A stretch of 63,775 nucleotides of DNA, filler included, from Licmophora abbreviata (Eukaryota), in the NCBI GenBank assembly GCA_900291995.1. It is 15 parts of 15 records of this genome, joined end to end, with 100 filler letters (N's around TTAATTAATTAA, not from the genome) between each part and the next. Parts side by side here need not be neighbours in the genome. Positions count along the whole stretch, not along the records: positions 1 to 7,600 come from OLMU01004360.1; 14 more parts are not named here. One strand, given 5' to 3'. The first letter of the stretch is position 1. Each line of letters opens with the position of its first letter. Shown in pieces: positions 1 to 62,495 of the stretch. The notes beneath the pieces are model-generated. The model had not been told where the DNA came from. It searched no databases and was given only the letters and a program-made list of their open reading frames with translations. The translations under genes were made by a program, and so were the position numbers.

Positions 1-1980
1 ACACACTCGATTTGGTCAGCAAACCCTCGCCCAAGACGGACTTGGACTCCATCATTAGCACCATGGTAGTTGCGCAGGCCAAGCCGTCTCATGATGCCAC
101 GCGTCGTGGACTTGTGCTCACTGGAATTGATGGAACCAAGGCTACGCTGGTAGCATGTGAGCAGCGTACGGCCATTGCCTGGATCGAAGCGATCGACATG
201 ATGCTGGCCAGCAAGAGGCGCCGTACCTCTGCCGCGGCAGGATATAAGGTGTGTGGAGCATGGTGCGTGTAAGAGTACTGTCATGACCTGCGACTAACTC
301 ACACGGATGAATATGCCACCCACTGCACCAATTCTATTCTAATTCTACGCAGGTTATCAAGACGCAAAAGTCTCGCACTTGGGGTAAGGAGCGCATGTCG
401 GAAAAGGAACGTGATGAGGTCGAGTCGCAGTACTTGAACCTTGCAGCTTACTCCAACAAGCTCATTCGCGCGGGCGCCGTTCCCGGACACAACAAGGGCG
501 AGAAAGGCACTTCCATCTACTACAGTGTCGACCGTGCGCAGAGCGAGCCCGCCGAGGGATACGAAGACGAAGCGCTCGAGAGTATTGCCAAGCGACGTGC
601 GGTCATTAAGGATTCGTGGGACTTCTACCGTATGATTTGTAGCTTGTTGCGTGATCGACGCAAGTACGACGAAGTCTTTCGCAAGATGCAGCTTGACCCT
701 GTCTATCCCTACTTGAACTCCATGACTGGATTGAACGATCCTGGAGATGATGGAAAAGAAGACAAACAAGTGATTCAAAAGGACCTTCCCGAATATGGGG
801 ACATGACCAAGTCTCAAGTGGTCGCAGATCTGATCAAGGGAGCGAAACAAGCGCTCCCTAGTTTGGTGGAGATTTGCAAGGCACTCGCCGGTAGCTTGGG
901 TATGGAGGAAGTGGGGGTAGGACCAGTCAAGGAGGCTTCAGCGGCTATTCGCAAGGCAGAAAAGAAGTATTCTGGCGACTTGCTCAAGGTTACGGATTAC
1001 TGCCGTGCTTTGTTGGTTGTCAAGGACTTTCCGTCCTTGTTGGCATTGCTGGAATTGGCCCGTGACTCGTTTGGTCCGCTGATTCGTCGTGTCAAATTGA
1101 GTACTCTCAAGAAGGAGCACAATCCCTTGGCTGGTGGATACCGCGATTGCAAGATCAACCTCGAGTTGAAGGGTGAGTTTTGGTTTTCAATTGTTGTAAA
1201 GAGCTCTGTAGAATGACATCTGACGAGTGTGTCGCACATTTCTGTATCCACTCAGGTCATATTTGTGAGATTCAGATCCACGTGTGGCCCATGTGGACCA
1301 TCTGTGGCGTTGACGGTTTCCGTCACTACCGTCATTGCGTCGAGTATTCCACGGATTCGTTCGACGATCCGTACGATGCGCTAGAAGGACTTGACCGCAA
1401 GACCATGGCGGAGCTGATTGTCATGTCCGAAGAAGCCGTAGCGGCCACGCCGTTGGAGAACTTGGAGTGGTACCAGGAGAAGTTTATCCTGGACTACTTT
1501 GCCGAAGTCGGCTTGTTCCTTGCCCATGGACTGGAGGCGTGGGCGGAAGTGACGTTGCGTCGTTTGATCCAGTTGCGCACTGACTCTCCCGACATTGGAC
1601 CGGGTCACCACGAGACACTGATTCTGCAGAAGTACATGGAGCGTGCGTTGCGGGCTCAGAAGAAGAACAAGGAGGCGGCCGAGCAGGCCCACATTCTCAA
1701 GGAAGCGGAAAAAATCAAGAAACAAGAAGCAGATGATGCCGAATTGACCTTGTGGGACTCCATGGTGAACGCTCCGACGGATGCCATCGACATGATTATG
1801 GATCCAAACAAGAAGGAACGCGAGGAGGAAGAACATTTGAGGAAGGAAGTCAAGGCTTCGAAGAAGCAGTGGCGCAGAATTCGTCAAGAGCGCTTTGCAT
1901 TCTTGGATTCCAACGCCGGTATCCCCCGCGAGCAGTCGGCAGGCCAGACCTCGGAGCAAGACGACTCTGAGAAGCAGTAG
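1..1980 (+). CDS. 5'-partial multidomain protein: PH-like domain + RelA/SpoT-like nucleotidyltransferase + TPR-like/coiled C-terminus; exons <1-248, 353-1172, 1256-1980
   Basis: GT-AG introns 249-352 (phase 0) and 1173-1255 (phase 1) join three ORFs in frame. The spliced protein has GPVKEASAAIRK..KYSGD..VTDYCR..GGYRDCKINLELKG|HICEIQIH (RelA_SpoT-like) and an upstream AWIEAI helix typical of PH domain ends. Confidence 0.75.
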
Positions 1981-2564
1981 AGATGGAGAAGAACGTTTAT
2001 ACAAGGCGCTCATCGGAGCACGGAGCACTCTTCAAGACGCGAATGTAGTCTCTGATTCAGATGGCAATCCATTCTCAGTTGCATATCTATGCTTTCACTA
2101 GTCCAGAAATACTTAGTAGGATCTATATGTTGCGTGACCTCATGATAGGGGCCTTTCGATACACCGGTTTACATGCTAGCTTGTATTACGAGTCATGAAT
2201 CCGTAGCATGACGGGCATCTGCTTGCTCCCCGCTTTATCGACGAAGCCGAGAATGAGCCTTATCCTCTATCTGTTTTGTTTGCAAACATCATATGCAGAG
2301 TTTGTAGAAGAAGAGTTAACAGAGTGGAAGCCATCAATCAACTCAAAAGTATTAAGTATGCTATTTCGTGGTGACGTCCAGGCGGACGGACGGACGGTTG
2401 CGGTCGCCCAAACCCGAAAAAGATTCGAGGCCGCGATCTTTTGTGTCACAATGATACCGCCGGTTAACAGCGCCGGCGTGGGCATTGCGCTGTGCGGCTT
2501 TCCTACACTGTGCAAGAGCTCCCCGCTTAATAATTGACTGAGACCTGCTTTGCTAAAGAGCAAA

Positions 2565-4346
2565 ATGGCACCGACAATCGGCTCTTCGTCGTCTGCGTCC
2601 AAGGCGGACGATGAACCGTCCTCGACCTCGACTGGTTTGTTCACTTGGAACTCCCACATGAAGTCGACCATGGCACTGTGCGCCTGCATCGCCAGCATGA
2701 GCTACATGATAATCTCCGTTTTCCCCTACAGTGGGTTTATGGCAATGGCTCTAGTCCCTGGACTGACAGAGGAGACAACGGGCAGCTACGCAGGCCTGAT
2801 TGCTTCCTGCTTCATGGCAGGGAGGGCACTCAGTGCCTATGCCTGGGGCAAGTGGGCCGATGTCTACGGGCGTAAGTTCATCCTGTTTGCGTCCTTGGGG
2901 CTTTCCTGTGTGTTATCGCTGTGTTTTGGTATGTCCCAGACGTTTGCGGCGGCCTTGGTTTCCCGATTCTTGTTGGGACTCAGCAACGGCATCATGAGCA
3001 CCGCCAAGACGGCTGTCACGGAACTGGCACATGGTGACGACAAACTGGAAAAGCGAGGTATGGGACTCGTCGTGGGTACGTGGGGGTGGGGATTCCTGTG
3101 GAGTCCTGCAGTCGGAGGCTTTCTTGCGGAGCCGGTCAAGCAGTACCCGAACAGCCCCATTGTGCAAGCAAATCAGGCCTGGCTAGGGAAGTATCCGTTC
3201 TTGTTGCCCAACCTCGTGGGAATCGCGCTCTGTCTGCTGGCCATTGCGGCGGTAGAAGCATGGGTACCGGAGACGTTGCCAGAGGACAAGAGAAGAAGCT
3301 ACTTGCAGATCCCCTCAGACTGTGCCGACTGGTCTCGAGCACTGTACGGAAAACTGTTTCGGTCCTGCTTACCTGCGCCGGACGACGAAGAGCGAACCCG
3401 GCTTGTATCTGTGCCCTCAGAATCGATGTTGGAAGAAGACGACGACGACGACGACGATTGGTCCGCCTATTCTCCGGATGATATTCCTGGATTGCGCTTA
3501 CGCCACTCCGAGTCAGGCAATATGCTATCGACACAAGTCAAGTCCATTCGCCCTCGCCCCTCCGTCATTCATGTTCGACCCAGTGTTGCCGAACGTATGG
3601 GTTTTGTCATACACGAAGGTCAACGGCGACGACGTTCCAGCATCTTTGGTCCTACAATCGCAACGCTATGGGCGCGTGTGGACACACGTGTCCATCTCCT
3701 GCTGTATTTCCTATACTCGTTTGTTCTCGTTTGTGGCGACGAGGCCTTTCCGTTGTACTGCATCTCAAAAGAAGGCGGGTTGGGACTTTCGGCGTCGTCG
3801 ATTGGCAACATCCTATCCGGATCCGGACTGATCTTTGGTGTCTGCCAGTACTTCGTGTATGCCATGATTGTCAACCGACTCGGCGTATACGAGTCATTGA
3901 TTATTGGTAGTCTCGGTTTGCCATTGTTGGTGCTCGTTCCATTCGCTGTGCTTTGGGCGGCCCCATCTGACGACGACGGCGGTACGGGTGACATCTCGTG
4001 GGGATCCTTTGTTTACCTCTGCTTGATCTTGGCCGTCGCTCGGATTGTCGGCAGCGTGTACTTTTCCAGTATTTTTATCGCTCTCAATCGAACAGTCCCT
4101 GCCGGACATCGTGCATCCATGAACGGTTTGCAAACTCTAGGTGGGAGCGCTGCCAAGGCTGTGGGTCCAACCTTTGCCGGTATACTGGTAACGGTTTGCT
4201 TTTCCTCGGGCTTGTGGTCACCGCAAGTCGGTGGATTCCTGATTTGGTCGGTGATTGGTATTCTCGGGGTATTTAATACACTGGCAGTTGTCCTTTGTTT
4301 GCGAGAGGATCCAGTGGAAGTGGACGAAGCTATCAGACTGCCTTAA
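2565..4346 (+). CDS. MFS transporter, ZIFL/tetracycline-resistance-like
   Basis: About 12 hydrophobic segments, motif A (WGKWADVYGRK), PAVGGFLAEP and YPFLLPN as in ZIFL-type transporters, and a long acidic central loop. ATG at 2565. Confidence 0.85.
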   Translation: MAPTIGSSSSASKADDEPSSTSTGLFTWNSHMKSTMALCACIASMSYMIISVFPYSGFMAMALVPGLTEETTGSYAGLIASCFMAGRALSAYAWGKWADVYGRKFILFASLGLSCVLSLCFGMSQTFAAALVSRFLLGLSNGIMSTAKTAVTELAHGDDKLEKRGMGLVVGTWGWGFLWSPAVGGFLAEPVKQYPNSPIVQANQAWLGKYPFLLPNLVGIALCLLAIAAVEAWVPETLPEDKRRSYLQIPSDCADWSRALYGKLFRSCLPAPDDEERTRLVSVPSESMLEEDDDDDDDWSAYSPDDIPGLRLRHSESGNMLSTQVKSIRPRPSVIHVRPSVAERMGFVIHEGQRRRRSSIFGPTIATLWARVDTRVHLLLYFLYSFVLVCGDEAFPLYCISKEGGLGLSASSIGNILSGSGLIFGVCQYFVYAMIVNRLGVYESLIIGSLGLPLLVLVPFAVLWAAPSDDDGGTGDISWGSFVYLCLILAVARIVGSVYFSSIFIALNRTVPAGHRASMNGLQTLGGSAAKAVGPTFAGILVTVCFSSGLWSPQVGGFLIWSVIGILGVFNTLAVVLCLREDPVEVDEAIRLP

Positions 4347-26015: not shown

Positions 26016-29000
26016 CTAAGCTTGGGACTTCGCCCAGTGCGGAATAGCAACGCGTGGTTCTACATCAGCCAAGAAGTTGACGACGCGCCCCGTTCCTCTT
26101 GGCTGTTCGTCCACAAGCGCAGTCGTTAATGCACTCTGGGGGAACTCGGACTTAAAGACACGAACAAAATATTTTGACGCTTCCCTGAGACTCTCATGAG
26201 TGAACCAGTTCAGGTCAATGTGATTGCGACCGTCCCACAGGGCAACGAGGTTTCCTCCAGACCAGTTTGCGACGATGACGCATCCCGCACCAATACCCGT
26301 GCTGACGTCCAACTCGAAGTCTTGCATGTCATCTGAATTTCTTAGGGCAGCTGCCGTTCTTGATAGAGCACTCTTCATGGCATTCTCAATAAGTTGTGGT
26401 GAAAGCTTCAACGACGCGCTCTCAAGTTGTGACAAGCACTGAAACGCTAGAGGTTTCTGAGAGAGCCATTGTTCCAGTGGCGGTTTCTGTTCGTAGTCGT
26501 GCGGCAAAAAGTAATGTGGCCATTTCCAGCCCGGTTCTTCTACATACCACTGCCAGGGAAACTGCCCGCCTTGGATCATCTGGACAGTAGACTCTAGGCC
26601 AGTCTTCTTTTCGATGCTCGAGACAACGTCAACCAACCGACGAACAAACCTGTCATCGATCGATGTAGTAAGTCCAACCTCCACAGTGCTCTCGGTATTG
26701 TTGAAAAGGATCTCTGCCCTGAAGTTTGGATCAAAATAGTTGATCTCAGTTCGGAATCGTTCCATAAAGTTCCGGCGCCATGACTCGCTTTCGTCAAACA
26801 TTACTGACAGCGCAAGCATGTCGTCGTCCAAAATAGTCTCCTTTTCTGCGTTTAGTATGTCATACACAACTCGCGCGAGAGTAAAAGTTGCACCGGGGTC
26901 GACAATAACTGCGCGAATCTTCTTGTCTTCTGATAAGGATTCGAGCAAGACTGTGGAAAGATCTGTTCCGCAAGACACCATGTTCTCGATGGCGCCCTGC
27001 TCGTATTCGTTGACCTCATCCATACCAGGACACGGCCGCAACGGTACGACCTGGGCAACAGTGTACATCGTCTCAAGTGTCCCGAGGCTAGCACAGCTCG
27101 ACTCATTCTCTCCACACAGAACAACCACTACATTATTGTCAATATCGCCAACCAGCCCTCCCAAGATTTCTTCAAGAAAAATCTCACTAACACTCTTCGC
27201 CATCACCATCTCTCGAGGCGGTTGTGGAGCTTTCGTACAAGGATCGATTGCGTGTGGGCCGCGTTTCTTTTCGTCCTCCTTCCATGTTTTGACGCCAAAC
27301 ATGCCACCTGCAACGATTCGATAGGAGGAAGTTGACTTTCCACCTCGGCCCTTCAATGCCTTGACAATGGCCTTTTTGGCGGCTTCCTGCCTGTCGAAGG
27401 AGCTCCAAAGATGAATGTCGACTGCGGCATACTTTTCATCGGGGAAGGTACGCGCCACCACGTATCCCTCTTCCAGAATGAGGGTTACGGCTGGCTTGTC
27501 GCTGGAGGCCGATTGAACACGCGATACTGGGTGAAAGCCTTGTTTGTTCAAAGACTTTTCCAGTACGTCAAGAATTGTCTGGGGGTCTCTGAGATTGCTA
27601 CGGGCGTCCTCGACCTCGACAACCATAAGAATGCCTGGGCTTCTGGTCTGCTCGATGGGCTCAGGATCGGATTGACCCTCCGCTTTGCATAGAATATCCG
27701 CGGTCTTGTTGTGGCGATAGTCATGATAGTATTCATACTTGTCTACCTCTGATGGAGGTTTGACAAAGAGACAATCTCGTTTGTGATCTCTCATTTTATC
27801 ATTCAGAAAGTTGACGCGGTTACTTCCAAGAACCAAACACTGGGAACAAACGACAGGCACATCAGGAAAGTCCACCTGAAGGCTACGGGAGAAGGCACAA
27901 AGTTTTGACAATGTGAGAAGCGTAGTATCATTCACTGTTTATTGCATGATACCATATAAAGCACGTACCTGTATCGAAACATGGAGCTGAGCTTATCCAT
28001 GTAAAGCTCGTTCTTTACAAATATGCCTTCGGGTTTGAGTAGAAGTGTCAGCGCCTGGAGAATGTCCAACTCGTCCGTCACGCTGAACGATGCGACAGTC
28101 TCCGACAGATCCACGAGAACCATGTCAAACGAGCCAAAATAATCTGCAGGGAGCATCAGGAGACTCTTTGCAGCATCCCCGTACCACCACTGCACCTTTT
28201 CGTTGTCCCAATGCGGCTGCGCGCCCATGTGTTTGAAAGCGTATCGAGTGATGAACTGATCCAATTCCAAACCAACGACAAACTCGATCGATCGGTACTT
28301 GAGGATCTCATGAAGAAGCATAGAGTCGCCTCCACCAACAAACAATACACGTTTGACGTCTTTGATGAATCGAGCCGTGTTGTGGACGACCATTTCGTGA
28401 TACTGAGGACGGTAGCTGCCGCAGATTTGGATGATTCCGTTGATAGAGAAACAGACATTATCGTTTGTGGGATTCCGAGCAAAGTGTATATCCTGATAGT
28501 GAGACTGAATAGAGTCCAACTCTTCCATGTCGTCAAACACCATATCACTGTATTGGTCACACGTGTACGCGTCGAGGTGATGATAGTCGATTGGGTCTTC
28601 TCTCTCACCCAGATCGTCGTACGGTCTCAACAAGGAACACGATGCGCCGCCCGAGCGGCACTCTAGGTAATGCTGTGCCAGTTCGCAAGTTTCATCGATG
28701 CCGATATCCTCAATTGTACAGACAAACTTTAGCGCTTCCACAATGGCGGTGATGAGGGCGTCTTTGTATCGCTGAATCACACTTAGCTCATGTTCGGGCA
28801 CTTTGTTTCCTGCGACTTCACGAAAATCATCCAATCGATGAAGCTGAATGAGAAGGTACCAAATGGCATCGTTGTCGGGGTATTCGTCCGCAAGCCAATC
28901 CACTTGTAGAAGTCCAGATTTCTCATCTTCGTCAAGTTCAAAACCAATATCCTCGTTCCAAAAGAACCACCGCTGAGGGTAGTTTTCGACAAATCCATAG

Positions 29001-29544
29001 TCACGAAGAATCTCAGGTGTACCGTATCCATAATCACGGGCTCCACAATCCTCGCAGAAGTTGTAGGTGGTGTAAATTTCATCTCCTGCTTTGATATCCC
29101 GAGACGCGTACACGGGAATACTGGACCGACTGAGATCGTGAACACTTCCACGAGTTTCGGTGTTGAGCCGTGGGCCGTTGCGATGGCTCATCATATCGTA
29201 TACTGGAATCATGAGTTCATCCCAACCGCGTTGAAGTAGATACAAGGCAGCATTGACACTTGCTGTATCACGGCTACCCTGACAGTCTACATACCACTGC
29301 GGATTGATATACCCAGTGGGATTCTCAGGAGGAAGATCGTCCGTGTAGTCGGCGTCAGTTTGTGAAAGCAGTCCGTGCAGTAGCGACCTTCCTTCCAAGG
29401 ACCATGCGCTCGGCAGCTCACCAGGATCCTGAGAAAGAAGATAATTGGTATAAGGCGCAAATTCTGACTGGTCGCCAAGCTTCCATTCTTCGGCCAATTT
29501 GATAGCCGTGGGGCAGTAGATTGCACCGTATTCAGTTTCAGGAT
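26016..29544 (-). CDS. SET domain + spermidine/spermine synthase-like aminopropyltransferase + two AdoMetDC-like domains (5'-partial)
   Basis: SET: PVYDMMSHRNG...ASRDIKAGDEIYTTY. APT: RVLFVGGGD, GLELDQ, FDMVLVDLSE. Intron 27883-27968. AdoMetDC-like: LILEEGYVVARTFPDEKYAAVDIH and NLVALWDGRNHIDLN. Confidence 0.85.
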
Positions 29545-29644
29545 NNNNNNNNNNNNNNNNNNNNNNNNNNNNNNNNNNNNNNNNNNNNTTAATTAATTAA
29601 NNNNNNNNNNNNNNNNNNNNNNNNNNNNNNNNNNNNNNNNNNNN
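29545..29644. other. Artificial gap spacer
   Basis: N44-TTAATTAATTAA-N44. Confidence 0.98.
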
Positions 29645-33086: not shown

Positions 33087-35040
33087 CGTACACGCCGATG
33101 TCATGGAAGATACTACACCAAAGGGAACGCCGCCTCCCAAGTCGTCGTGCAACTGGAAGCTGTGGGGCATTGTGGGTCTTGTGATTGCGGTCCTTGTGAT
33201 ACTTGGAGTAGTGCTTGGTGTCGTGCTGGGTGGTGGGGACGGCGGAAGTAGTAAAGATCTGCCGACGGAGTCTCCAGCGTCACCCACAGTACCAGGCACA
33301 CCGGTTACTACTCCGGTTCCTACTCTGCCCCCTACCGAGGCGCCTACAGCCGCCCCAACTGGTCGAATTGACACTTTGCGGGAGCGCCTCGAGGTGGAAT
33401 TTGGTGAAATCATGCCCAATACACCGCAAGCAGAGACGCTGGCATGGCTTTCCGAAACGGATCCTCTCCAACTACCCGAAGAAGTTCCATTTAGAATTCT
33501 CAAGGAGCGTTACGTGATCGCCTTGCTTCACTTTGCGACCAACGGTGTGAACTGGTCGGAACAATTTGGGTTCCTGGGAGAGTCGTCGGTTTGCTCATGG
33601 AACGATGGACGAGGCAGCTTTTCGGGAGCTGGAGTGTTTTGTGACGCCAATGACAGTGTCACTCATATTGTGATTGGTAAGGGGTCGGGACCTTTATGTG
33701 CTGCCTTAGCTTGATACATCTTATATTCTGCAAGTTCTTCCCCCTATTTTCTATTTTTCTATGCAGAGACCAACAATCTTGTGGGGACACTCATCGGCGA
33801 GTTTACCGCACTCGCGTCCATGGAAAAAGTAGATCTTGACGAAAACAGCCTCGTCGGCCCAATCCCCGAAGCCATTGGAAACCTCACTGAATTGGAATGG
33901 TTTACCGTTGACAGCAACGACTTATCCGGGACGATTCCACCTGCGCTCTTCGAGCTCCCCAGGCTAGAGACGCTCTTTCTGTCAGGCAACAAGCGTATTA
34001 CGGGAAGCATTCCAGCCAATATTGGTAATGCTCCAAGAATGAAGATTCTATCTTTGTTTGAGTGCACGGGTCTCTCTGGGTCTATCCCACCTTCAATCAC
34101 GGACATGTCGTCTCTGGAACGTCTCAGCCTCGTTGGCGTTTCCCTGACAGGTCCGGTACCGGCATTCACGTCGCCCAGTCTCACTTTCCTGGCGCTAGAA
34201 CAGAACGCACTTACGGGTGAAATACCCGCGTCTCTCGGTTCGCTCCCCAACCTTGCGATCCTTTCGCTCTCGGATAACTTTCTCAACGGAACGATTCCTT
34301 CCATGTCAGGCAGTCCGTCCCTGACGACATTTTGGGTGTTTGAAAATCAATTGACTGGAAATATTGAAACGCTTCTGACGTCTGTGGAGCCCACGGGATT
34401 GGTGGAACTGGACGTGGGAGTAAACCGGCTTACAGGTACGATCCCTACCTTGATTGGACAGTTGACAGACTTACAAGATTTACGACTCAACGGGAATCGG
34501 TTTACGGGCACGATTCCAAGCGAGCTTGGTCTCGTCTTGGGTTTGAACCAGTTCCTCAATCTTTCTGACAATGACTTGGAGGGGGCGATTCCAAGCGAGA
34601 TTGGCCTGCTGACGGATATTCAGCTACTGGACATTGGCGTGAATAAGTTGAACAGTTCGATTCCTGTCGAAATTGGCAGCCTCATGAACGCGTTGGGCAT
34701 TGGAGTTCAAGACAATGAGTTGACTGGAATCGTCCCGACCGAAATTGCAGCCATTCCGAACCTTGGTGAGTATCATTGTCTACTTGTATGTCGTAGCGTT
34801 ACCGACGATTAACTAACCCGATCCTCCGACTCGTCATCGTGACTATTTCTCACAACAGTACAACTGCTTGTTGCCAAGAACAACTTTGAAGGCAGTTTGG
34901 ATCCATTCTTTTGTGCCCGTGTCGGTGATCCGATTGCAACGTTTCACGCAGACTGCCTTGGAAATCCACCCGAGATCGAATGCAGCTGTTGCACGACATG
35001 CTGCCGCGACGCCGGAGGCACTTGCGAGCAGCTGCAGTAG
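33087..35040 (+). CDS. Diatom-type type II membrane LRR receptor-like protein (probably 5'-partial)
   Basis: TM, P/T stalk, PQAETLAWL/ERYVIALLHFATNGVNW cap, many ~24-aa LRRs, introns 33677-33766 and 34766-34858, C-terminal ECSCCTTCC. Confidence 0.9.
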
Positions 35041-53205: not shown

Positions 53206-55982
53206 CTACTGTTGCTGCGCTTCAGGGGTTCGGCGACGAAGAAGGTTCCAGACATCCTTTTCGTTTAGAGAAGGCGGGCGCGACGGCTTGTTCTCATCAC
53301 CGTCAGTCGGAGGAGGCCCCTCGCCATTTCGAGACGATTGCCTCCTCATTTCATCCAGTTGTCGTTTAAGTTCCTGATTCTCTTCCTCAAGAGCATGTAC
53401 CTTCTTCTTTAGTTGATCAGTTTCCCTGCCTGAACCATAGAAGCGGATTCGACCGGATGCCAGGCTTGAGTTCTGGCGACTACTTGAGGCAATCGATTCA
53501 ATATCGTCTCCGTCGTAATGCGACCAGTCGATTTCCGGAGACAAGACTCTGTGTCGCTCGTCAAGTTGAGCAAGGCACTTGTCAACAGCTCGCTCGAGTC
53601 GAATCATTTCCTCAATGACTCTACGGGAAAGCGGTGCGCAAAGACAATGGAAAACTAGTAAGTTCACCAGAAGCTACCAGAAAGAAGCATGCAACAGGAA
53701 TCGCAACTTACTGCAGATACGGCCAAGCCGCCATTTGGCCGTATTTCAGGTACCCTTCCATGTCCTTGACGCTTGGGTTCGCCAGCGCTTGGAGCCCAAA
53801 CGTTTGTAGCGTAGTGAAGCGTGGAACAAGGGTAAGATTCCCGTGATACTTTTGACGAAACACCTTGGAGATGTCCTGTCCAAATATTCTTGGAAAGAGG
53901 CCGAGGCGGCTTAGCTTCAAGGCACGGTTTCGAATATCCCATTCGAGTGTCTGGAAGAAGCGCCAGTAGAAGCTCTTCCGACTGGGATGATGAGCCTTGT
54001 TGAGAAATGGAACGACATGAAAGTTTGTCTGACAAACAACATAGTTTGACACGTTGAAGAGGGTTGAAATACGTTGAAACGGGAGATCAGCTTGGACACT
54101 ACCATCAATCCACTCGACGCCGTCGACCTCGAATGGTTCTTGCTTTCCATGGTTGTCTTTTGCCAAAAGTTTCGCAGGGGCCATAACTCCCGGCAGCGCA
54201 CAGCTAGCTGTGAACCAATCGTTATGGACAAAAGCGAAGAGGTTATGGACAAAGTGAGAACCAACAAACATGATGAGCCTTTTACGAAACAATGCAAAAC
54301 TTACCTGCGACGGCACTGCTGAGTGTGACATGGGGTGTGGAGATATGATTCAACAACAGTCGCTGCGCTGTACCGCCAGTGGCTCGACTGGCGGATACGG
54401 TGATACAAACATGCTTGCCGGTCCTCTCAAAGGCTTCCTCGAACGTAGTATCTCCGTAATAAAAGTCGCAACATTTCTTGAAGTCTTCCGAATCGACCAG
54501 CAGCTTGTTCTTGAGCCAGTAGGCTCCCATCTCCATGATTGGCGGGAACCACCGAATGTTCTCCTTCTTCATCACACCGTTTAGCATAAAATCTGTGCTC
54601 ACGGTAGTGACGCAGACATCACGAAGCAGCTCCTCTTTGTTTCGTAGAGCACACATCGCCGCTGTGATGCTTCCACCGGAAGTTCCGGAAATTACCTTGA
54701 TTCCGTCCCACAGACCAGACTCGACCAATGCTCGGACTGTCCCAAGATGGTACATGGCTTGTGCTCCTCCACCCGACAACATGAGTGCCGTCCGCCCCAT
54801 GTTTTGTTTCATCTTCCGAACCAGTGTGATTCGATCGTTAATTTCACCTTGCCGAGACACGTTGCTGTCCTCTCTCGTAATCATCAGCGCATCGGCACCA
54901 CTCAGAGGCGACCTCGACAATGGTTCATGACACAAGGGGGATTCGGAAATGTGCGTCAAACACGCTTCCACTTCTTTGTAGTAGACCTCGATCGCTTGCA
55001 GCGCCATTTCCGATAGAGCGTGCTTTCCCGATTCCGCCACCGATCTCGAGTCATCAATGAGACGATCGTCCAAGGCCAGATGGTTCCGCTTGACGACACC
55101 CGACAATAAATATTGAAGCGCTGTTGCGGACTCTTCACATCGCTTCTTAATCGCAAGCAAACGAGCTTCTCTCAACCGAGCCGTGGTTGTCAGCAACATG
55201 CATCCAGTCATGCCAAGTTCCTCCTCGAGCTGGACGGCCTCGGAGGATGGGAGGGACGACCCCGCACAAACACTAAAGGACGTGGTACGTGTCATCCTCT
55301 CGGGAGACCTTAGGGATGACGCCACATCCGCTTCCCCAAAACTACTACTGCGTCGAATAGATTGCGGTGTTGGTGATGATGACTGGGCGGAAGAGGTGGG
55401 TAGAGGTGAGGACGGTCGTCCCACGAGGGAGTCCTTCCAAGAGTTGCTACGCTGCAAAGAGGGTCGTCGCTGAGACGAAGAAGCGTCGTCTTTGGGTTCA
55501 ATCACAATTTGAGTGTAGTCCTCGTAGCACTCCGCCTTGCTCAAGTTCTCTTTCCAAACCCGTCTACGACTCTTGCGTTCGTCCAGCCCCGACCTTCCCA
55601 GATAGTAGAGCATTTGATTTCGGAGCATCGAATACGTCTTGAGACCGCTCAGACCCATAATGTCACCCGCAATCATCAGGAATTGGTAGGTGACGAAACA
55701 GAGCTGGAGAAGACCAAATAAGACCGATGTGACGAGCCAAAATACCCACGTCGATGCTGCTGTCAAGGCAACTAGGAGTGTGACAATGGCGGGCCAGAAA
55801 AAGAAGACAATCGCAGCCGCGGAGAGCAAATGATGCGAGCGGTACTCGCGCAGCCATGCGAGGGATAATACGTGTGACCCCCAGGAATGCATGGATTCTC
55901 CAAAAGCTAGGATGGCCGTCACGAATCGGTCCCAAGCAGCGTCCATGGCCTCGGCAATCACCATGACGAGTTCCAACCACAT
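53206..55982 (-). CDS. Patatin-like triacylglycerol lipase (SDP1/Tgl3-5 type)
   Basis: LSGGGAQAMYHLG, GTSGG nucleophile and WIDGSV motifs; introns 54208-54304 and 53621-53711; N-terminal TM segments. Confidence 0.92.
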
Positions 55983-56377
55983 CGCTGAAGAGGACCTGAA
56001 AATGATTTTTTTTCTAATTCAACGACAGACAGAGCTTTCAAGCTCACGTCACAAGAACAAGGACCGCCAGTGATTTTAACAAGCGTCAGGACAAGCGATA
56101 TCTCCAAGGGCCTCTTTGACGGTCCCAATATTCATCCCCATGGCCGCGAGCGATGGCCACTCGAAACAAAAGTGAACTGAAGAAAAAGCAAACGAGTGTC
56201 AGAATTTCCGGGTTTCTGACGTTGAAGTGGAAAAGTACCAATCTTTGTCGTCCAAGATCCCGATTCCATCGTATGTTGAAGCCGATTTCCGCGATCTTGC
56301 CGTCAGTACTGAAATGCCGTAGAAAAGGTCGCTTACGTACAACAACAGGCTAAACTGGATCACACCGCTTGTCCACC

Positions 56378-61415: not shown

Positions 61416-61880
61416 TGCTGAGCACAGACGTTTAACACTGCTCGATCAAAGAGAAAAGGTGAAATAAGTGAATGCAATTTGAAAGTAGTCCAACGACATC
61501 GTCAATGTTGAATGATGATGTGAAGGGATGAGTTTCACCCGTCCTTTTTTTGGCGCGCCCCACACATCCTCCAATTACCATAAATAATAATGACGTCACT
61601 ACGACATGGAGCTGAAACCAAGCTCACAAAACAAACCTCAAACCCAATTCGATGCCACGTCTTGTCGCCAAGACACGTTCCGGAAACAAACTCTCGACGA
61701 CCGAGAAGATTTTCGGAACATATTCACAAGAAAGAGTGGAGATCGAAAACTGTTTCTTCGTCCATGCAGTCATTGTCTTGTGCCGATTCGACAGAAAACG
61801 ATCACCACGAAACAGTCACCTGCGCTCACCACCACTACTTTAGATTTCTTCACACGCTCAGTAAGTATCACTCTGTTACC

Positions 61881-62495
61881 ATGGACATTGAACATACTGA
61901 ATTGCGTTGCTTTAACTACTTCGTGAAGCAGTACTTCCCCAACGATCTGACGAGACGATTCATTCGAAACATCAATGATTTCCTGGAAGAGCTTGCTGAC
62001 GAAATCAAATTCCCTGGTCTCAAACTGAACGAAGAGGGCATCTGCGCCTTTCAAGACAACAACCTTGTCATTGTCGTGGAAGTTCCCATGAAGGGAGAGT
62101 GTCTCTTTCTCTATTCTGCCGTCTATCATGCCAACCCATCGGATATGGAACTGAGTCATGCTGTCATGAAGAAGGCCCTCGAACTGAACTATATGCAGCA
62201 GGATACAGCGGGAACGGTACTGTCCCTTGACAAGAGAGCCGACCACTCCTTGGAGTTCACTCTATCCTATTCCTTTCCCATGGGCGGCATGACGTGCAAC
62301 GAGTTTTGTACCATTGTCATGAACTTCATGACGGCCGCGGGAGGGGCGCATCGGACCTTGAAGAAGGAGGCTTGTGAATTCCGACTACAGAAACAGTTGA
62401 AAGAGGCTCAACGGAAGTACGAAGAAGAAATGATAGATGGATCCGCGCTAGAACTAGTGACGCGTCGATCGGGGGTGCGGAGTGTACAGTGGTGA
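61881..62495 (+). CDS. CesT/SycE (type III secretion chaperone)-like protein
   Basis: LKLNEEGICAF, LFLYSAV, KKALELNY..TAGTVLSLD and EF..IVMNF match the class I T3S chaperone pattern by eye. Confidence 0.65.
   Translation: MDIEHTELRCFNYFVKQYFPNDLTRRFIRNINDFLEELADEIKFPGLKLNEEGICAFQDNNLVIVVEVPMKGECLFLYSAVYHANPSDMELSHAVMKKALELNYMQQDTAGTVLSLDKRADHSLEFTLSYSFPMGGMTCNEFCTIVMNFMTAAGGAHRTLKKEACEFRLQKQLKEAQRKYEEEMIDGSALELVTRRSGVRSVQW

Follow-up and report, generated by a model that had tools for sequence, protein, structure and literature searches.

Does a diatom make an alarmone-type nucleotide outside its plastid? The question is raised by the first 1,980 nucleotides of a 63,775-nt stretch of Licmophora abbreviata DNA (assembly GCA_900291995.1, 15 parts of 15 records joined end to end; hereafter the window). 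A preliminary description made from the sequence alone recognized a gene there that joins a PH-like domain, a RelA/SpoT-type synthetase domain, and a tetratricopeptide repeat (TPR)-like segment. To our knowledge, the (p)ppGpp synthetases known from eukaryotes work in the plastid and are of the long RelA/SpoT homologue (RSH) type, and the characterized enzymes of the RelV/Tas1 type are bacterial and either exported or secreted. Enzymes of the RelV/Tas1 branch turn over about 100,000 molecules per minute and are lethal to bacteria if free in the cytoplasm. Judged by sequence, the synthetase (SYNTH) domain of the diatom protein is a very divergent member of this bacterial RelV/Tas1(Apk1)/EAS branch, and we consider the whole protein to be, probably, a regulated, non-plastid nucleotide 3′-pyrophosphokinase, a prediction that draws on alignments and a structural model.

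Positions 1-1980 of the plus strand hold the 3′ two-thirds of a spliced nuclear gene, the 5′ end of which lies outside the window; the gene is present as one copy within the window, and its product is a protein of about 750 amino acids. Three open stretches lie in three different frames, and removal of two GT-AG introns joins them into one continuous frame, as the preliminary description had proposed. For intron 1, the open stretch of the exon-2 frame contains a single AG, at 351-352, the GT at 249 is the sole frame-keeping donor that can be paired with it, and removal of the intron fits the linker length of aligned orthologues to ≤1 residue. Intron 2 does split the catalytic region: within the synthetase-like domain, it separates the GYRD strand from the strand of the catalytic Glu. 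Transcript-derived proteins (MMETSP, “type:complete”) of other diatoms align collinearly across both junctions, and the diatom orthologue P0012 reads ...ELKGHICEIQ... through junction 2. Because transcript-derived orthologues run through both junctions, the splice model appears right and the gene is expressed in relatives, the transcripts being those of homologues and not of L. abbreviata itself. The three exon translations were analyzed separately, full-length database orthologues stood in for the spliced protein, and feature coordinates were counted by hand on the sequence ruler. The motifs quoted earlier (PVK, DYCR, GYRD, EIQIH, AWIEAI, and IGPGHHETL) are all present at the positions mapped here:

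3-248, plus strand: exon 1, 82 amino acids, 5′-truncated by the window start (direct reading and translation)
3-248, plus strand: content of exon 1, the last PH-like strands, a C-terminal helix at ~165-212 (AWIEAI), then a basic linker
249-352, plus strand: intron 1, GT..AG, 104 nt, phase 0
353-1172, plus strand: exon 2, 273 amino acids, with linker, conserved helical region, then the synthetase-like part
~569-739, plus strand: conserved helical region of exon 2, which packs with the C-terminal TPR helices
~803-1172, plus strand: first two-thirds of the synthetase-like domain, in exon 2
920-931, plus strand: GPVK, from the exon 2 translation
929-931, plus strand: beta1 Lys, in exon 2
953-955, plus strand: alpha2 Lys, in exon 2
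995-1006, plus strand: D-Y-C-R, with the Mg Asp at 995-997 and the Arg at D+3 at 1004-1006
1133-1147, plus strand: GGYRD, with the acceptor Tyr at 1139-1141
1173-1255, plus strand: intron 2, GTGAGT..CAG, 83 nt, phase 1, with a Gly codon split into g and gt
1256-1977, plus strand: exon 3, 240 amino acids, followed by TAG at 1978-1980
1256-1347, plus strand: start of exon 3, the last strand (EIQIH, catalytic Glu at 1267-1269) and next helix of the synthetase-like domain
1369-1758, plus strand: helical TPR-like region, from kinesin light chain (KLC) profile and fold matches
1492-1686, plus strand: kinesin-light-chain-type unit, with IGPGHHETL at 1594-1620
1747-1758, plus strand: conserved T-L-W-D motif, from a motif count in orthologues
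1801-1908, plus strand: conserved charged C-terminal helix, from the orthologue alignment (model helices 485-526, predicted local distance difference test [pLDDT] 82-96)
up to 1980, plus strand: variable tail and TAG (1978-1980), from translation and the orthologue alignment

The gene encodes a strongly conserved, diatom-wide protein. With exon 2 alone as the query, 246 longer proteins were found at E≤1e-3, and the best 120 of these matched at E values of 1.6e-132 to 5e-114 with 67 to 79% identity, a similarity far beyond chance. Conservation on this scale (246 related proteins, best E 1.6e-132) ruled out a chance open reading frame (ORF) or an annotation artifact. Among the 120 listed, every organism-named match is a diatom: Synedropsis, Eucampia, Grammatophora, Nitzschia, Pseudo-nitzschia, Epithemia, Cylindrotheca, Skeletonema, and a Bacillariaceae metagenome-assembled genome. 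Full-length orthologues have 710 to 870 amino acids. The wider family numbers 417 representatives at E≤1e-3 in an exhaustive profile search, including several deeper clades that share just 23 to 40% identity with P0104, the orthologue whose fold was modeled; the sole organism-named distant match is P0301 of Guillardia theta (E 2.2e-4). The C-terminal module (helical region, synthetase core, TPR, and C-terminal helix) also closes far longer proteins whose N-termini are unrelated and unannotated (P0137, with 2549 amino acids, P0142, P0145, P0146, and P0148). Together with P0279-P0289, which likewise carry the helical-SYNTH-TPR module at the C terminus, these relatives span 1100 to 2549 amino acids, and their long N-terminal regions gave no Pfam domain at E≤0.01.

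The predicted fold points to an RSH synthetase. The AlphaFold2 model of P0104 (543 amino acids, equivalent to exons 2-3), built on an alignment of 101 sequences (A3), had a pLDDT of 84.4 and a predicted template modeling score (pTM) of 0.78, with residues 90-470 mostly >94. In a Foldseek search of the PDB, the top matches were all RSH synthetases, seven of them at E≤1e-3; Tas1 was the best (E 4.4e-5, 22% identity), followed by RelP, RelQ/SAS1, SAS2, RelA, RelSeq, FaRel2, and CapRel. In the VIA comparison, Tas1 matched at Z 10.8 with a root-mean-square deviation (rmsd) of 2.6 Å over 133 residues (23% identity), SAS2 at Z 10.9, RelQ at Z 10.8, Rel at Z 10.2, and RelP at Z 10.0-10.1. The modeled SYNTH fold, a mixed beta-sheet framed by helices, superposes on these solved synthetases. 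The AlphaFold and Foldseek comparison, run on the orthologue, thus provides the RSH-synthetase structural match, and the RelA/SpoT-type assignment of the preliminary description is borne out by VIA Z values of 10.8-11.0, the all-RSH Foldseek top matches, and the profile match to Tas1 described below (E 1.1e-5). A nucleotidyltransferase of the cGAS/DncV or Pol-beta type was considered and rejected; NF90/NF45 appears first at Foldseek rank 37 (probability 0.89).

Sequence profiles lead to the same branch. Searched against the PDB, the A3 profile reached Tas1 at E 2.9e-6, and a core-only profile (A6) had Tas1 as its single match among 177,635 sequences (E 1.1e-5); a shallow alignment of ten near-identical sequences (A1) gave nothing relevant there (ankyrin, E 0.88). 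Tas1/Apk1, a type VI effector of P. aeruginosa (PDB 6OX6), is the sole solved structure reached by sequence. The A6-Tas1 alignment has a common x-P-x-K ... A..K ... Y-x-G-D ... D-x-x-R pattern, in which HMMER aligns just the first 40 to 64 core positions. Tas1 is described as a divergent RelV-subfamily homologue by Jimmy et al. 2020 (PMC7229694), and it differs from the diatom protein in being a secreted toxin that is fused to PAAR and has an immunity protein; no PAAR domain was found in the orthologues by Pfam.

Matches in bacteria extend over nearly the whole core. A6 matched 10 of 401 sampled Pseudomonadota genomes, in ORFs of 257 to 268 amino acids (best E 1.1e-15) and across profile positions 2-139 of 143, as well as 4/4 Vibrionaceae genomes; it had no match at E≤0.01 in five genomes holding only long RSH. 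Its single match in V. cholerae ATCC 14035 (E 1.3e-12) is a 259-amino-acid ORF (L096:1354-2130, minus strand) with a signal-peptide-like N-terminus, which is the third PF04607 match there after RelA and SpoT. We infer from its length, signal peptide, and third PF04607 rank, rather than from a locus tag, that this ORF is RelV (VC1224). By BLASTP, the diatom core fragment P0131 matched it with 28% identity over 113 amino acids (E 7e-9). A further A6 match, L093, is a 463-amino-acid PAAR protein of Tas1-like architecture. When the family core was trimmed and aligned by hhalign to the SYNTH of 24 long RSH, the probability was 80.9% (E 1.3e-5) and the score was 39.2, compared with 13.9±2.6 (maximum 25.7) for shuffled columns, none of 200 shuffles reaching the real score. 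The trimmed alignment and the RelV-like ORFs at E 1e-15 back the call of a RelA/SpoT-type synthetase.

Among the relatives found, the RelV subfamily and exported alarmone synthetases (EAS; V. cholerae RelV, V. parahaemolyticus VpEAS) are the closest in sequence. A careful IQ-TREE analysis (59 rows and 164 columns, after removal of 4 long-branch rows and 5 that were duplicates or near-duplicates) separated 15 long RSH and 3 small alarmone synthetases (SAS) from 28 family members and 13 RelV-like ORFs with support of 100/100, and the diatom family formed one clade, also at 100/100. A quick tree that included the long-branch rows gave 99 for the split between the canonical rows and the family plus RelV-like rows, and left L093, L095, P0299, and P0301 unplaced. 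The placement closest to RelV holds among the rows sampled. RelV-type enzymes are bacterial, single-domain proteins of ~260 amino acids with a Sec signal peptide (PMC12691689), whereas the diatom protein is eukaryotic and multidomain (710 to 870 amino acids), fused to PH-like and TPR parts, and without a signal peptide.

Most of the catalytic residues are retained. Residue roles were taken from SaRelP (PMC5794853) and FaRel2 (PMC11782079), and columns were mapped by alignment. K221, K229, D243, and R246 are each conserved in 97/97 family sequences and E306 in 96/97; position 291 is Tyr in 95/98 and Phe in the remaining 3. The beta1 Lys, alpha2 Lys, Mg Asp, catalytic Glu, and acceptor Tyr align with the columns of 17 long RSH and 3 SAS, and the set is kept in 95 to 100% of 95 to 99 sequences, including the paralogue clades at 23 to 40% identity. 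The family has the fold of long RSH and RelP/RelQ in common, with motifs in collinear order and Asp, Glu, two Lys, Tyr, and Gln kept; it differs from them in that R-x-K, D-x-x-G-x-R, GYxSxH, and EIQIRT are all altered. An equivalent of the ribose-binding His (H325) was suggested by hhalign, an assignment that the MAFFT alignment did not reproduce. Family-specific invariants are the Pro after the beta1 Gly, Y234, R274, the GG before Tyr, N297, H303, and C305.

The preliminary description had read the altered motifs as a feature of this protein and a hint of a product other than ppGpp. The motifs are indeed altered, but they are not peculiar to this protein. Arg at D+3 is found in 28/28 family rows and in all 14 RelV-like ORFs, where canonical rows have A/G. 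GYxD occurs in 22/28 family rows and in 14/14 RelV-like ORFs (GYRD in each of the 14). His replaces the Arg of EIQIRT in 21/28 family rows and 14/14 RelV-like ORFs, the latter all reading E-x-Q-x-H-L, and R292 and R246 are common to both groups. Tas1 has part of this pattern (the Pro, Y-x-G-D, and D-x-x-R), and the Tas1-like ORF L093 differs from the family at GY-R-D and E-x-Q-x-H, so by its GYRD and E-Q-H motifs the family resembles RelV more. The signature of the RelV/Tas1 branch used here (no beta1 Arg, Arg at D+3, GYRD, and E-x-Q-x-H) was derived from the sampled ORFs and is not a published definition. As for the product, the branch includes proven (p)ppGpp makers, so the motifs alone give no such hint: RelV and VpEAS make (p)ppGpp, SaEAS makes (p)ppGpp as well as (p)ppApp, and Apk1/Tas1 makes (p)ppApp (PMC12691689). 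Because specificity varies within the branch, the product is not readable from homology; the putative product is most likely (p)ppGpp or (p)ppApp.

The flanking regions suggest how such an enzyme may be placed and controlled. Exon 1 matched Pfam PH_27 weakly (E 0.016, 15.9 bits; cut-off 27). A first AlphaFold2 run on 10 near-identical sequences (overall pLDDT 49, core <50) was used for the PH part only; in the fold comparison against 48,161 chains, ~30 of the 50 rows listed were PH domains (Z 8.1-9.3, model residues 20-235), including those of Sin1 and Akt and the split PH domains of PLC-gamma1 and PIKE. These fold matches, with the weak PH_17 and PH_27 hits, agree with the PH-like domain described earlier. 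The domain is split, comprising a conserved N-terminal strand and residues 147-234, and the window holds the last part only. In the insert of the split domain, upstream of the window part, 44/45 full-length orthologues have a hydrophobic/aromatic-x-CC-basic motif, followed in orthologues by a long Lys/Arg-rich basic helix. The CC motif looks like a putative dual S-acylation site, and S-acylation and membrane docking may be inferred from the CC motif, the basic helix, and the PH-like module.

The KLC-type TPR of the preliminary description was likewise recovered. The A3 profile matched 13 KLC1/KLC2 sequences of the PDB (E 8.6e-11 to 1.5e-7, KLC1 being the best), and the KLC2 TPR matched in VIA at Z 10.6 with an rmsd of 2.1 Å over 104 residues; because its model range (116..457) spans the SYNTH domain, the helices flanking the synthetase form one TPR-like array in the model. 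Pfam TPR_12 scored 15 to 15.6 bits in the orthologues (cut-off 30.1), and a precomputed PF13424 annotation is present on 2 of the 120 listed orthologues. The array shares the G-P-x-H-x-E-T turn motif with KLC and differs from it in having ~2-3 repeat units, interrupted by the synthetase domain. About 44 residues after this turn, 54/65 orthologues have an [ST][LM]W[DE] motif that resembles, by PDB titles, tryptophan-acidic peptides bound by kinesin light chain TPRs. As pure speculation, it could be an intramolecular autoinhibitory ligand.

No HD, TGS, ACT, or EF-hand domain was found by Pfam in 7/7 full-length orthologues, in line with the earlier claim that HD is lacking, and all 45 orthologues examined lack a hydrophobic stretch at the N-terminus (maximum 15-residue hydropathy over the first 60 residues, 1.53, taken as a proxy for a presequence). 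Together, these two results fit a non-plastid protein. The suggestion that the gene might be an immune module fared poorly, as it fits badly with the strong conservation of the orthologue group. Such conservation argues against a fast-evolving immune receptor, although sensor-like variants are conceivable among the paralogues, whose N-termini vary. An NLR-type (nucleotide-binding, leucine-rich-repeat) immune receptor was rejected, no NOD domain having been found by Pfam in 32 proteins (7 orthologues and 25 relatives).

A mechanism can be proposed on this basis. The protein has a split PH-like domain with a CC insert and basic helix, a linker, a TPR-embedded SYNTH domain, and a charged C-terminal helix. 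Its SYNTH domain would be an active Mg2+-dependent pyrophosphokinase that transfers the beta,gamma-pyrophosphate of ATP to the 3′-OH of a purine nucleotide, yielding (p)ppGpp and/or (p)ppApp. It would act at a membrane in the cytosol rather than inside the plastid, with the PH-like module, the probably S-acylated CC motif, and the basic helix providing membrane association. The TPR clamp and C-terminal segments probably hold the enzyme off until a ligand or partner binds; such an off-switch seems probable given the cytoplasmic toxicity of free RelV-type domains, as reported for signal-peptide-free RelV/EAS-type forms (PMC12691689). A single transfer of a RelV-like gene from bacteria, with later fusion and expansion of paralogues, is the most likely origin of the family.

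Several observations weigh against this reading. Neither the three exon translations (E≤10) nor 7 full-length orthologues (E≤1) nor 25 relatives at greater distance (E≤0.01) matched PF04607 (RelA_SpoT; gathering score, 27 bits), so that Pfam did not recover the family named in the preliminary description. NCBIfam and PADLOC gave no synthetase match to the core, the sole PADLOC row under 0.001 being PDC-S62 on the helical part of P0143 (E 5.8e-4). Untrimmed hhalign alignments reached 6.7% against RelA plus SpoT and 18.9% against 24 long RSH, in the right register. The tree holds only 3 non-RelV SAS and no CapRel/FaRel/PhRel toxic SAS. In the active site, the beta1 Arg position is Pro in 27/28 family rows and the D+5 position is L/S/T/F/M, where all 20 canonical rows have Arg at both, and the alpha-phosphate Ser is replaced at the aligned position; in Arabidopsis RSH1, loss of the first Arg accompanies inactivity (PMC6881373). 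The PH call rests on a low-confidence model (pLDDT 65-80 in the PH part), with PH_17 sub-threshold in orthologue P0004 (17.0 bits; cut-off 22.4), and the N-terminus of the window gene itself lies outside the window. Finally, the top VIA Z belongs to CapRel, a tRNA pyrophosphokinase, though Tas1 and RelQ lie within 1 Z unit of it, a tie.

The Pfam result has to be seen beside the behavior of the branch. RelV-like bacterial ORFs themselves score just 21.7 to 28.3 bits with PF04607, and the PAAR-fused Tas1-like ORF L093 has no RelA_SpoT match by Pfam. The V. cholerae ORF scores 49.4 bits with the diatom-derived A6 profile versus 27.3 to 29.1 bits with Pfam, at the cut-off; because A6 outscores PF04607 on this ORF, Pfam appears barely to cover the RelV/Tas1 branch. 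In the ESM Atlas, clusters carrying RelA_SpoT appeared at 0.88 and 0.92, as leads only.

A first alternative is that the enzyme is an RNA or tRNA 3′-pyrophosphokinase like CapRel/FaRel2, which would modify the CCA end and stop translation, for example as a growth-arrest switch under stress or virus attack. In structure, the best match is CapRel (Z 11.0 and 10.9, rmsd 2.4-2.6 Å; 2.4 Å over 139 residues, model 172-319), and Foldseek also recovered FaRel2. The family keeps the acceptor Tyr, which in FaRel2 stacks on the adenine of CCA (PMC11782079), and its extra invariant basic residues R246, R274, R292, and H303 could bind RNA. CapRel is, however, level in Z with Tas1, RelQ, and SAS2 to within 0.2, and sequence profiles reach Tas1 and RelV-like ORFs, with no CapRel/FaRel2 chain at E≤10. 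CapRel and FaRel2 retain the Arg pair that stacks the donor adenine (R64/R95 in FaRel2; PMC11782079), whereas the family lacks it, and R292 and R246 are also present in nucleotide-using RelV-like ORFs. Unlike the diatom protein, CapRel and FaRel2 are parts of toxin-antitoxin or anti-phage systems. We regard an RNA or tRNA substrate as unlikely.

It is similarly improbable that the domain is a pseudoenzyme, that is, a nucleotide-binding or structural module in a PH-TPR scaffold that performs no pyrophosphotransfer. The domain is invisible to Pfam, and it has lost the alpha-phosphate Ser and the adenine-stacking Arg pair, by which the donor adenine is held in RelP (PMC5794853) and FaRel2 (PMC11782079) and the first member of which is lost along with activity in AtRSH1 (PMC6881373). 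But Asp, Glu, both Lys, and Tyr are kept across divergent paralogue clades at the frequencies given above, and the departure from the Arg pair is also seen in 14/14 RelV-like ORFs and the Tas1-like ORF. The objection from Arg loss is weakened because active RelV and Tas1 also lack the Arg pair and the Ser, and their branch has some of the fastest alarmone synthetases (PMC12691689). As the altered motifs are the signature of a highly active branch, loss of the Arg pair is no sign of decay.

An ordinary plastid RSH of the RSH1/RSH4 type, with an HD domain and presequence upstream of the window, is highly improbable: the N-terminus of this gene does lie outside the window and diatoms possess plastid RSH enzymes (PMC6881373), but the full-length orthologues lack HD/TGS/ACT (0/7) and a signal-peptide-like segment (0/45, by the hydropathy proxy), the core groups with RelV-like ORFs apart from long RSH (100/100; the phylogenetic comparison with long RSH and 3 SAS thus agrees with a noncanonical synthetase), the canonical GYxSxH and EIQIRT motifs are absent, and the three P. 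tricornutum RSH genes of Avilan et al. differ in JGI IDs and architectures.

The predicted non-plastid pyrophosphokinase has partial precedents. Avilan et al. 2019 reported three P. tricornutum RSH genes (JGI 11099, 7629, and 33947), and the available text makes no mention of a PH domain (PMC6881373). Unplaced divRel genes that encode a synthetase only were listed by Atkinson et al. 2011 for diatoms, fungi, and Dictyostelium, among them a divRel[S] of P. tricornutum, Phatr2 49781 (PMC3153485, supplement files 5 and 6). This is a fourth P. tricornutum gene, distinct from Avilan's three; it may or may not belong to the diatom PH-TPR family, and no paper on Phatr3_J49781 was found in the literature search. 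RelA_SpoT is a fungal NLR effector domain according to Dyrka et al. 2014, and fungal RelA_SpoT domains occur in proteins with TPR, WD40, or ANK repeats (PMC4986451). The fungal domains and the eukaryotic divRel genes resemble the diatom protein as non-plastid, synthetase-only RSH domains; the fungal NLR domains differ in matching Pfam RelA_SpoT and being joined to NACHT or NB-ARC. Novelty is limited by the divRel genes of 2011 and the fungal NLR domains of 2014. No description of the PH-SYNTH-TPR architecture was found in the literature searched, bioRxiv supplements and subscription journals being outside the search. All characterized RSH members act in the bacterial cytoplasm according to PMC12691689, the available text of which leaves eukaryotes unmentioned; none of five diatom genus names, nor “Eukaryota,” appears in its six supplementary Apk1/Tas1 homologue lists as available.

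The neighbors of the gene in the window are ordinary eukaryotic genes, including major facilitator superfamily transporters, a ubiquitin-conjugating enzyme (UBC), a seryl-tRNA synthetase, and fructose-1,6-bisphosphatase (FBPase). The ORF at 61584-62492 (plus strand) matched Pfam CesT (Tir chaperone, a type III secretion chaperone; E 1.1e-12, 48.5 bits, cut-off 22), a family unexpected on a diatom nuclear contig. An S-adenosylmethionine decarboxylase ORF at 26019-27938 (minus strand) adjoins a spermine/spermidine synthase ORF at 27935-29596 on the same strand, and the pair (26019-29596) may be one fused or spliced polyamine-synthesis gene. No link to the synthetase gene was seen for a patatin-like phospholipase ORF (54285-56018, minus strand) or a leucine-rich-repeat ORF (33715-34809, plus strand). 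Antisense ORFs at 302-937 and 1384-2031 had no Pfam match. The window has 1232 N, none of them in 1-3000, presumably from an assembly gap.

A RelV/Tas1-type domain in a PH-TPR scaffold without plastid signals points to alarmone-type signaling outside the plastid of diatoms, in a branch of enzymes that standard profile libraries miss. That diatoms have a full alarmone pathway of this kind, in which a membrane-docked, TPR-gated RelV/Tas1-type synthetase makes cytosolic (p)ppGpp or (p)ppApp, is a tentative idea and, at present, a doubtful one. If true, a eukaryote lineage would possess a conserved alarmone synthetase of the cytosol, one that could drain purine nucleotides quickly and so switch cells into growth arrest, dormancy, or cell death when stressed or infected; the paralogues that carry other N-termini would then be versions of this switch that respond to different inputs. 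The family thus raises the question of cytosolic alarmone-type nucleotides in ecologically dominant algae, and of how such a dangerous enzyme is kept off.

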